This document shows positions 24,789-26,253 of a stretch of 64,000 nt of DNA, in pieces. Position 1 is the stretch's first letter. Every line of letters begins with the position of its first letter. Source of the stretch: a virus; IMG/VR virus record IMGVR_UViG_3300042691_016049, positions 4,538 to 68,537 of that record. One strand, 5' to 3'. Position numbers and translations under genes: made by a program. The notes beneath the pieces are model-generated. The model was given only the letters and a program-made list of their open reading frames with translations. It was not told the DNA's origin and searched no databases.

Positions 24789-25367
24789 TCAATCATAGTA
24801 CGGATCGGTAAGTTTGCTAGGAGGAAATAGCGCGGTCTTCAGGGGGATTATCTTTTCGGGCATCTGGCTCCAAATACGAGTGGTCTCATAACTCTTCTTG
24901 CACCACTTGCGATTATTAAACATCCAATGATAACCCAAGATATAAGCGTTTGCCATCTGGGCGTATTCTTTGAGATTTACTGGCAGTTTGTTTCGGGCAA
25001 TTTTGCGGACAGACCTCATTTCGCAATCCCACTCTAGTTCAATAACGAGGCGGATATACTTGTCCACATAGTCCACTCGTTTGCCAGCAAGCCAATCGTC
25101 CACATGCCCAAGGGCGTCTTCGCGGGGCTTGTGCCACTTGGGCCTTTGTGTCTGCTGATCCAGATGACAGGTCTCATGGACAAACACATCCAGCCATGTG
25201 GAAAGCGGACGCTTGGTGGCTATTCGTAGCTCTTTATCGTCAGCCCAACCAACAGAAGTAGCTTTTCCAGTAATGAGGTATCTCTGAGGAACGAAAGTTA
25301 GCTTAAACTTTCGATATTTGAGGATGGCTCGCCCCAAAAAGTTGATGGTTGCTTGATCCATTGTCAC
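24789..25367 (-). CDS. Zincin-like (HExxH) protein
   Basis: 'VFVHETCHLDQ' plus 'LEWDCE'. Confidence 0.6.
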   Translation of the reverse strand: MTMDQATINFLGRAILKYRKFKLTFVPQRYLITGKATSVGWADDKELRIATKRPLSTWLDVFVHETCHLDQQTQRPKWHKPREDALGHVDDWLAGKRVDYVDKYIRLVIELEWDCEMRSVRKIARNKLPVNLKEYAQMANAYILGYHWMFNNRKWCKKSYETTRIWSQMPEKIIPLKTALFPPSKLTDPYYD

Positions 25368-25526
25368 TCTTCTTCGACATCGGTTTCCTCAACTTGTTCA
25401 AACAACATTCTGATAGGATTGTCGCAAAAGCCTTCTTCTTGTTCTGGGAATGGCATCAGAACGCCCGTGTCATCGTAGGCGACTTTTAGATCAGCATCGA
25501 ATTGGCTCTGTGTCATTTGCCCTATA

Positions 25527-25919
25527 CTACTGGCTTCTGTCCCAAACTTCAATTATGGTTTTTTCTTCTTCGCCCTTTTTCGTTTTCCTTTGCGTGACCC
25601 TGAGTTCGATTTGGTCTTCGGTATCGTCTGGGATTGCCCCACAGTAGCGTAAAAAATCGCAATAAAATTTCGCACCACCATAGAGATTGTCGGTGTCGAG
25701 GAGTCGATTTTTTCGGACGCTTTCAATGCAGACAAGCAGGCGGCTTGAATCTCCTTCTTTTCCCTCAACCTCTGAAAGTGGTTCATCGAAAAGAGGCGGT
25801 TGAGTGATGGCAGGCGGTGCCTTACGTTTAGTCTTAGCACTAGCCTTTTGTTTGATGATGTCTCTTCGCTCATAGACTCCCTTACTTATTTCCACATAGC
25901 CCGCTGGTAGTTCCTTCAT
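25527..25919 (-). CDS. RusA-like Holliday-junction resolvase, catalytic C-terminal half
   Basis: 'R.LDTDNL..GAKFYCDFL..GAIPDD'; ATG coupled (ATGA) to the upstream ORF 26059..25916. Confidence 0.7.
   Translation of the reverse strand: MKELPAGYVEISKGVYERRDIIKQKASAKTKRKAPPAITQPPLFDEPLSEVEGKEGDSSRLLVCIESVRKNRLLDTDNLYGGAKFYCDFLRYCGAIPDDTEDQIELRVTQRKTKKGEEEKTIIEVWDRSQ
25553..25873 (-). CDS. Nested out-of-frame ORF carrying the RusA-like N-terminal half
   Basis: 'LVLRLNVRHRLPSLNRLFSMNHFQRLREKK'; preceded by the SD-like AAGGGAG. Confidence 0.5.
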   Translation of the reverse strand: MSEETSSNKRLVLRLNVRHRLPSLNRLFSMNHFQRLREKKEIQAACLSALKASEKIDSSTPTISMVVRNFIAIFYATVGQSQTIPKTKSNSGSRKGKRKRAKKKKP

Positions 25920-26059
25920 GTTTCGGGATTTGAGGATGGTTTAAGGACTAATATCACAGCCAGCGCAAACCACCAAGGACTCCAGTCCTGCCAGCCCACT
26001 AGATAGGCCGTGCCGCCGAAGACGAAAATATTCCAGATTAAGCAGAATATGGCGTTCAT
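25916..26059 (-). CDS. Small two-TM membrane protein
   Basis: 47 aa, MNAIFCLIWNIFVFGGTAYLV..WSPWWFALAVILV; ATGA overlaps at both ends. Confidence 0.6.
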   Translation of the reverse strand: MNAIFCLIWNIFVFGGTAYLVGWQDWSPWWFALAVILVLKPSSNPET

Positions 26060-26253
26060 TTATTATGAATGATTGGTTTGATATTGTGGTTGTGTTCGGC
26101 TCTTGCGATATACTTTTGTGCTTCTGTAAAAGTATTAAAGTCGGCGGGATTATACACACAACCAGCATCTACCCAAAATAATCCAAACATCTTCCATTGG
26201 ACGTAGAACCTTGATCCGTCATAAAATGGATACTCTTTAATTCGGTATTTCAT
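26056..26253 (-). CDS. Hypothetical protein (paralog of 26237..26464)
   Basis: Shared MKYRI.E..Y.Q.K..LFW....F..EA.KY pattern. Confidence 0.6.
   Translation of the reverse strand: MKYRIKEYPFYDGSRFYVQWKMFGLFWVDAGCVYNPADFNTFTEAQKYIARAEHNHNIKPIIHNK

Follow-up and report, generated by a model that had tools for sequence, protein, structure and literature searches.

Two nested reading frames on the minus strand of the window, by which we mean the whole 64,000-nucleotide stretch of viral DNA that was analyzed, appear to encode the two halves of a RusA-like enzyme, with the catalytic part in the outer frame (ORF B) and a counterpart of the RusA N-terminal part in the inner frame (ORF A). Dual coding is well supported by the sequences compared here, and, on balance, we favor the reading that the two products come together to restore a RusA-like enzyme. 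The comparative side is solid, in that both frames are open, each has a start, selection on them is complementary, and a short overlap between the halves is doubly constrained. Translation of both products in vivo, their binding to each other, and the cutting of junctions by the complex are what we infer.

RESULTS

Layout of the locus

ORF A lies wholly inside ORF B in the +1 frame relative to it, so that going from A to B is a −1 shift. The ATG of B overlaps the TGA of an upstream ORF of 47 amino acids (25916..26059) as ATGA. A first-pass annotation had described this coupling, the nesting of A with its own AAGGGAG, and the coordinates and frames of both ORFs, and re-reading the sequence gave the same picture. 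The features are as follows:

25919..25527, minus strand: ORF B, 130 amino acids; N-terminal peptide, spacer of ~37 amino acids, and RusA-like C-terminal part; stop codon at 25527-25529
25873..25553, minus strand: ORF A, 106 amino acids; nested wholly in B in the +1 frame; stop codon at 25553-25555
25886..25897, minus strand: mini-ORF ATG TGG AAA TAA in frame A, ending 12 bases before the A ATG
25883-25877, minus strand: AAGGGAG, Shine-Dalgarno-like, just before the A ATG and within B codons K13-G14-V15
25860..25919, minus strand: B residues 1-20, conserved N-terminal peptide MKELPAGYVEISKGVYERRD
25749..25859, minus strand: B residues 21-57, variable spacer overprinting the N-terminus, strand, and helix of A; predicted to be disordered
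25713..25748, minus strand: B residues 58-69, SSRLLVCIESVR, predicted beta2 strand; Arg60 codon CGC at 25740-25742
25530..25712, minus strand: B residues 70-130, putative catalytic part with DxDN, helix alpha2, DD, and strands beta3 and beta4
25715..25849, minus strand: A residues 9-53, strand beta1, LPSLN, and helix alpha1 HFQRLREKKEIQAACLSALKAS; putative counterpart of the RusA N-terminal part
25715..25750, minus strand: doubly constrained stretch, in which the same bases encode A residues 42-53 and B residues 57-68
25556..25714, minus strand: A residues 54-106, out-of-frame reading of the B catalytic part, S/T-rich with a K/R-rich end RKGKRKRAKKKKP
25754..25759, minus strand: AAG AAG (K39 and K40 of A), the sole A-rich site upstream of B Arg60; the equivalent in other clades is A_AAA_AAG
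25715-25708, minus strand: CGAAAAAA, the site named in the first-pass annotation for a possible frameshift

The neighborhood is a phage replication and nucleotide-metabolism module, with a dCMP deaminase, an HNH endonuclease, a DnaB-like helicase, and a ribonucleotide-reductase-like protein. A small downstream ORF (25364-25552, minus strand, containing MTQSQFDADLKVAYDDTGVLMPFPEQEEGF) follows the A/B pair in most relatives, distant ones included, and had no match in searches of PHROG and Pfam.

Both frames are kept in relatives

Scans of viral and metagenome contigs with B gave 16, 56, and 32 loci, which, with the window included, made up 89 entries, 73 of them unique. Six entries in which B runs off the contig were left out, as were five without the A motif; two of these five are 5′-truncated contigs, and the other three are unrelated to the RusA-like part (two have only the first ~25-38 residues in common with B, and one overlaps only its last ~34). 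The remaining 78 entries reduce to 61 unique complete loci. Each of the 61 has both frames open, down to 35% identity, with an ATG in frame A and an open frame for 63-84 codons past the S-L-N motif. Among them are clades with just 35-45% identity to B (L062-66, L067, L069, and L072). A degenerate DNA pattern for the A motif found 44 further stretches, 30 of them distinct, with both frames in every one, and added the clades L106, L108, L109, L112, L114, L118, L120, L122, L123, and L130. The check proposed in the first-pass annotation, that both frames be open and conserved in homologous phages, therefore came out in its favor.

The chance of such open frames was estimated by synonymous resampling of 13 representatives, which are not fully independent. 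The A tail was open with p = 0.04-0.58 per lineage and B across the A head with p = 0.009-0.36 per lineage; the summed log10 values over the 13 representatives, −12.0 and −12.9, respectively, overstate the case because the lineages are related, and rough products over about nine deep clades are ~1e-7 for the A tail and ~1e-10 for B across the A head. The two-frame layout is confirmed as real and as more than chance.

We weighed whether the layout could instead be an artifact or a decaying gene, produced when an ordinary RusA gene acquired an indel in assembly or a frameshift by recent mutation. Such events are the most frequent reason for finding a domain divided between frames, and one database protein, P0001, is pieced together from three frames. 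The first-pass annotation expected an assembly indel to reveal itself through homologs with one continuous ORF, and the related loci have two frames in 61 of 61 cases, the same layout extending to clades at 35% identity. Contigs from other sequencing runs (freshwater, lake, and wastewater DNA) cross the gene with no indels or gaps, and three short contigs of relatives from RNA libraries, which may be DNA carry-over, cover parts of the gene at 90-99% likeness, also without gaps; these are no sign of either transcription or editing. Moreover, both parts are under purifying selection, and the catalytic motif is not in frame in any of the 149 A-type database ORFs examined. We regard the artifact reading as effectively refuted, with hardly any probability left to it.

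Runs whose labels read freshwater, lake water, wastewater, and "fungus metagenome" contain DNA nearly identical to positions 25300-26200. Of the 24 runs listed, 9 have at least half of the words sampled from this interval, and 4 of the 9 may be the source sample.

Selection switches between the frames

Entropy was taken at B codon positions 1/2/3 in a codon alignment of 53 sequences, where B position 1 is A position 3, and the pattern along the gene points to the following frames under selection:

B residues 5-20: entropy 0.17/0.19/0.86, frame B selected
B residues 37-65 (A residues 22-50): entropy 0.86/0.41/0.48, frame A selected
Six columns between the A-head and C-part regions: entropy 0.96/0.80/1.13, neither frame, all positions variable
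B residues 75-126: entropy 0.60/0.47/1.01, frame B selected

The amino acid identities between groups follow the same order. The N-terminal peptide has an identity of 0.91 in frame B versus 0.66 in frame A, the A head (alignment columns 39-67, which are B residues 37-65 and reach into the B strand) 0.32 versus 0.64, and the C-terminal part 0.50 versus 0.35. By these measures, selection switches frame along the gene, reading the first 20 residues of B as B, the next ~30 codons as A, and the last ~55 codons as B. Variation peaking at B codon position 3 in the N-terminal peptide means that this peptide evolves as a B-frame protein, and the A head, present in every locus, has its peak of variation at A position 3, which upholds the conservation of frame A on which the first-pass reading depended. 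The sequence of the A tail (residues 54-106) is not conserved, yet its frame is kept open, and the B spacer is open in all loci despite low identity. Purifying selection is found on both frames of the A/B pair, as expected of a pair of the Rz/Rz1 type.

A stretch that appears to be read twice

The first-pass annotation held that the A helix and the B strand have their coding nucleotides in common, and this is the case: A residues 42-53 and B residues 57-68 share positions 25715-25750, where the end of the A helix (IQAACLSALKAS) and the predicted strand of B (SSRLLVCIESV) come from the same bases. The codon for B Arg60 is CGC in 42 of 43 distinct sequences and CGT in the other one, while the A codon contributing the leading base of that codon always ends in C and specifies, across the set, eight amino acids (A, L, R, D, I, T, N, and G). 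Selection in frame A cannot explain this constant C and selection for Arg in frame B can, so that B is under selection within the A helix. The strand-like pattern of B is itself largely a by-product of the A codons, because nTT, nTC, and nTG all encode hydrophobic residues, and Arg60 is the only independent sign of B selection within the strand. The shared nucleotides, thus, appear to be read in both frames.

Starts and stops

Frame A has an ATG in all of the 43 distinct sequences, at a distance of 9-34 codons ahead of the PSLN proline, and a B-frame ATG lies upstream of this ATG in 39 of the 43, by 4 to 121 bases. In L118, the B-frame ATG is 11 bases downstream of the A ATG, and it is absent in three sequences, namely L116 and L095, which begin with a GTG-encoded residue, and L122. 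The TAT of B Tyr16, source of the A ATG, is invariant in 53 of 53 sequences; synonymous sites of B over the Shine-Dalgarno motif are depressed (K13 0.61, G14 0.45, and V15 0.31), and an SD-like motif precedes the A ATG in 26 of the 43 distinct sequences. No ATG, GTG, or TTG occurs in frame B near beta2 in the window as an internal start. Frame A usually stops 11-107 bases before the B stop; in L112, L120, and L135, it runs 121-139 bases past the B stop into the frame of the next gene.

The two starts are nearly adjacent in some loci. In L118 (~2278-2292), the sequence is ATGAAAAAAAAATG, where the A start comes 11 bases ahead of the B start and nine consecutive A's are crossed, and loci of the L062 type (L110, L113, and L132) have ATGTATG, with B first and A 4 bases later; in such loci, one ribosome-binding site might serve both A and B. 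The mini-ORF ahead of A has the pattern "AMW[KR]*" in most close relatives, and the TAT of B Y8 in its region is invariant. In L033, the mini-ORF stop is lost and A starts at the upstream ATG of the mini-ORF; in L026 and L028, the mini-ORF sequence differs, and A starts at the upstream ATG as well.

ORF B carries the candidate catalytic part

The first-pass annotation assigned the RusA catalytic motifs to B, and they are all there: D75-T-D77-N78, K84, D88, R91, and D98-D99, with D75, D77, K84, D88, R91, and D99 invariant in 39 B-type proteins. We set D75, D77, K84, D88, and D99 beside D70, D72, D91, and K76 of E. coli RusA, and B has the acidic catalytic residues by which a RusA is recognized. 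Against the PHROG families of RusA-like Holliday junction resolvases, B matched phrog_34 (E 2.2e-5, residues 69-128) and phrog_1682 (E 1.1e-4, residues 58-123), and hhalign of B against single-frame RusA-like proteins gave a probability of 97.8% (E 7e-13), with B 61-122 aligned to their 55-123. Neither A nor B had a match in a Pfam search. In one clade (L042, L047, L048, L049, L056, L086, L093, L095, and L097; 9 of the 53 aligned sequences), D-P-C-N replaces D-x-D-N, the second Asp being Cys, and both frames are kept.

AlphaFold2 predicts for B (mean pLDDT 67) a hairpin at residues 8-18, a helix at 19-26, and disorder at 26-57, with pLDDT below 50 at residues 26-50, followed in the C-terminal part by a strand at 61-69, a helix at 76-93, and strands at 104-112 and 120-127. 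Residues 59-129 of this model align with residues 53-118 of E. coli RusA (1q8r_A) with Z 4.3, an rmsd of 2.7 Å over 64 aligned residues, and 22% identity, a match that ranks third for the model and is tied with tautomerase-like folds of the 4-OT/MIF type and other beta-alpha-beta folds. Foldseek with the B model gave nothing at E ≤ 0.001, and sequence-profile searches of the PDB with A, B, and the single-frame family did not return RusA. As the B model aligns to RusA 53-118 only, RusA residues 1-52 have no counterpart in B, in agreement with the unrelated-looking N-terminus that the first-pass annotation ascribed to it.

The N-terminal ~20-38 residues of B (MKE[LI]PAGYVEVSKGVYER..) also head unrelated proteins in related contigs, including a 384-amino-acid protein with DUF1064 and HTH (L071:1501-2652) and a Mom-family protein (L100:379-1056), and the peptide occurs again at L099:1501-1620 (compare 25860-25919 of the window). 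Its presence on unrelated proteins makes it look like a portable module or a recombination boundary.

ORF A resembles the missing N-terminal part

For A, AlphaFold2 predicts two helices, a long one at residues 32-55 (pLDDT 85-90) and another at 61-82 (pLDDT about 72), with disorder at the basic end. By hhalign, the A head matched an alignment of 19 single-frame RusA-like sequences at 65.6% (E 5.8e-5), with A 16-44 colinear with their 7-36, and against a 4-sequence alignment the probability was 6.5%; the similarity of the A head to the RusA N-terminus is, thus, modest. A had no match in PHROG or Pfam, and an ESM Atlas search with the A head gave no usable match. The first-pass view of the strand-LPSLN-helix of A as the N-terminal elements of RusA, therefore, holds in part, as the elements are present and colinear but without a match to either family database.

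Searching 1.84 billion representative proteins (clusters at the 50%-identity level) with a profile of the A head gave 212 clusters at E ≤ 1e-3, 58 of them at E ≤ 1e-10. The best 150 of the 212 matches were examined, and without the three-frame chimera P0001, 149 A-type ORFs remain, none of which has D-x-[DC]-N in frame, suggesting that, among these best matches, the A head exists only in the two-frame form. An A-type tail is present in 131 of the 149, with a median of 51 residues, an S/T-rich start, and a K/R-rich end holding a median of 8 K+R in the last 25 residues. The B-type proteins found, 76 in number, are all unnamed or "hypothetical." No match to A or B was obtained by tblastn against 50,697 phage records, and scanning the GTDB species genomes with the A head found no relative.

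These data also bear on whether B could be a nuclease by itself, its own N-terminal hairpin replacing beta1, with A as a separate small protein such as a regulator or an inhibitor that mimics half of the enzyme. All candidate catalytic residues are in B, the hairpin is predicted by AlphaFold2, and the basic tail of A could bind DNA by itself. However, the N-terminal peptide is not universal, since L118, L122, and the L062-type loci have another N-terminus or almost none, whereas the A head is found in every locus and is colinear with the N-terminal part of the single-frame relatives, for which B has no counterpart. We consider it improbable that B acts alone in this way.

Predicted association of A and B

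The complex was predicted with ESMFold2 using full-length B and A residues 1-60, separate alignments, and three controls. The A+B runs gave ipSAE values of 0.48, 0.48, and 0.47, with 0.01 for the best of the three controls, contact agreement of at least 94%, and a partner pLDDT of at least 68. Of 80 solved complexes, 58 attain the ipSAE mark, as do 2 of 110 mismatched pairs, and the range up to 0.60 holds only 7 of the 80 solved complexes and both mismatches. Since A and B would be halves of a known fold, the ipSAE pass may also reflect likeness to solved RusA, and the prediction hints weakly at an association of the two. The first-pass proposal of a dual-coded heterodimeric nuclease is, therefore, upheld for the dual coding, by frame-specific selection, separate starts, and Arg60, and only faintly for the heteromeric nuclease (ipSAE 0.48).

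Programmed frameshifting

Programmed −1 frameshifting, or another form of recoding, from A into B would yield a single RusA-like fusion chain, A would then be the by-product made without the shift, and the shift could occur at the Lys-Lys site (AAG AAG here and A_AAA_AAG in other clades) or near CGAAAAAA. The direction of the shift and the order of the elements fit, −1 shifts are used elsewhere by phages, and A_AAA_AAG or A_AAA_AAA is found in frame A, 3-4 codons before B Arg60, in 18 of 43 distinct sequences. Even so, we think this reading unlikely. The canonical heptamer is missing at the Lys-Lys site in 25 of the 43, the window included (GAA AAG AAG), and in 22 of the 43 the scanned region lacks any X_XXY_YYZ heptamer. 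Variability is highest at the junction that follows the helix (entropy 0.96/0.80/1.13), there is no Rfam match, and the downstream fold is not unusually stable (25760-25640, −27.4 kcal/mol, z −1.0). In addition, frame A continues for ~50 codons with no stop after the junction, and frame B is open upstream, with its own ATG and an N-terminal peptide that evolves as a B-frame protein.

The first-pass annotation had reasoned that a simple frameshift would delete one element, and this is correct for both positions: a shift at Lys-Lys would drop the second half of helix alpha1, which is selected in frame A, and one placed after the helix would cost beta2 and Arg60, which are selected in frame B. 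Its alternative of a programmed frameshift near CGAAAAAA did not stand, as the site is not conserved and lies in the most variable stretch, and no conserved heptamer or RNA structure was found. As a conserved mechanism, programmed frameshifting is not supported by the alignment, although the heptamer in 18 of 43 sequences may mean that a fused product is made in some of those clades. We also considered a backward ribosome hop of ~34 bases, by which the shared stretch would be read twice; it is conceivable but unnecessary, because B has its own start.

DISCUSSION

In the mechanism that we favor, B would start at 25919 by ATGA coupling to the upstream gene, and its product would consist of the short conserved N-terminal peptide, a disordered spacer that is the A head read out of frame, and the catalytic part (beta2, DxDN, alpha2, DD, beta3, and beta4). 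A would start 46 bases downstream of B, in the +1 frame and with its own SD and ATG, and would provide the missing N-terminal part (beta1, the PSLN loop, and the long alpha1) along with a passenger tail with a basic end. The two products would associate and rebuild the RusA fold, and because RusA is a homodimer, the assembly would probably be A2B2.

The likeness to RusA (E. coli, 1q8r; phrog_34, phrog_1682, and phrog_4632) lies in the profile match of the C-terminal part of B and its D-x-D-N/K/D/DD pattern, and in the A head, whose strand, P-S-x-N, and long basic helix are what one would look for ahead of that part; E. coli RusA has a PSNN motif. The difference is that here the halves are in different frames of the same DNA, overlap by ~12 codons, and do not form a continuous chain. 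A single chain of ~120 amino acids in the order beta1-alpha1-beta2-alpha2-beta3-beta4 was not found: in all related loci, frame A encodes beta1 and alpha1, and the elements from beta2 to beta4 belong to frame B. B also has the extra N-terminal peptide and spacer, A has the extra basic tail, and there is no Pfam RusA match. The single-frame RusA-like phage proteins (L011 and L014-L016) resemble B in LDTDNLYGG and the downstream helix and strands, and resemble A in an N-terminal S-P-N...K-W...K-E-K helix, but in them alpha1, a loop of ~9 residues, and beta2 are consecutive in one frame. Their own matches to the RusA-like PHROG families are weak (E 2.5e-4 to 1.6e-2), and they have no Pfam match.

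Lambda Rz/Rz1 is a known case of a gene wholly inside another in the +1 frame, with separate starts and products thought to serve one function. A is likewise nested in B in another frame, each with its own start. Rz1, however, is an unrelated protein overprinted on Rz, whereas the two frames here carry two halves of what is one protein in relatives. Genes with programmed −1 frameshifts, such as dnaX and the phage tail chaperone G/GT, also have two frames with the downstream part in the −1 frame. In contrast to them, the A/B pair has no conserved slippery site or stimulator, its zero frame runs past the junction, and its −1 frame, from a start of its own, is open and under selection. PMC5764923 deals with a tail-chaperone frameshift.

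The pair would likely have arisen by frameshifting of an ancestral single-frame gene in which, by chance, both alternative frames were open. We put forward tentatively, as a possible history, that an old frameshift turned a RusA gene into two near-fully overlapping genes whose halves must meet, that this state was inherited across hundreds of phage lineages, and that the passenger segments have since been recruited for DNA binding or docking.

Hundreds of uncultured phage lineages share the layout, for which we found no earlier description in a RusA-type enzyme; a full-text literature search brought up no paper in which a RusA gene is split, frameshifted, or overlapping. Gene callers mostly annotate one of the two ORFs and name neither, so that a class of phage resolvases would be labelled "hypothetical." With ~390 bases and two chains of 106 and 130 amino acids, the pair offers a test system for fragment complementation, the evolution of overlapping genes, and the constraints of dual coding. 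If the products reassemble, this would be a natural enzyme coded as halves in two frames of the same DNA, and it would mean that a gene can survive a frameshift if its two alternative frames are both open, and that the split state can persist through deep divergence, the A head being matched by 212 protein clusters.
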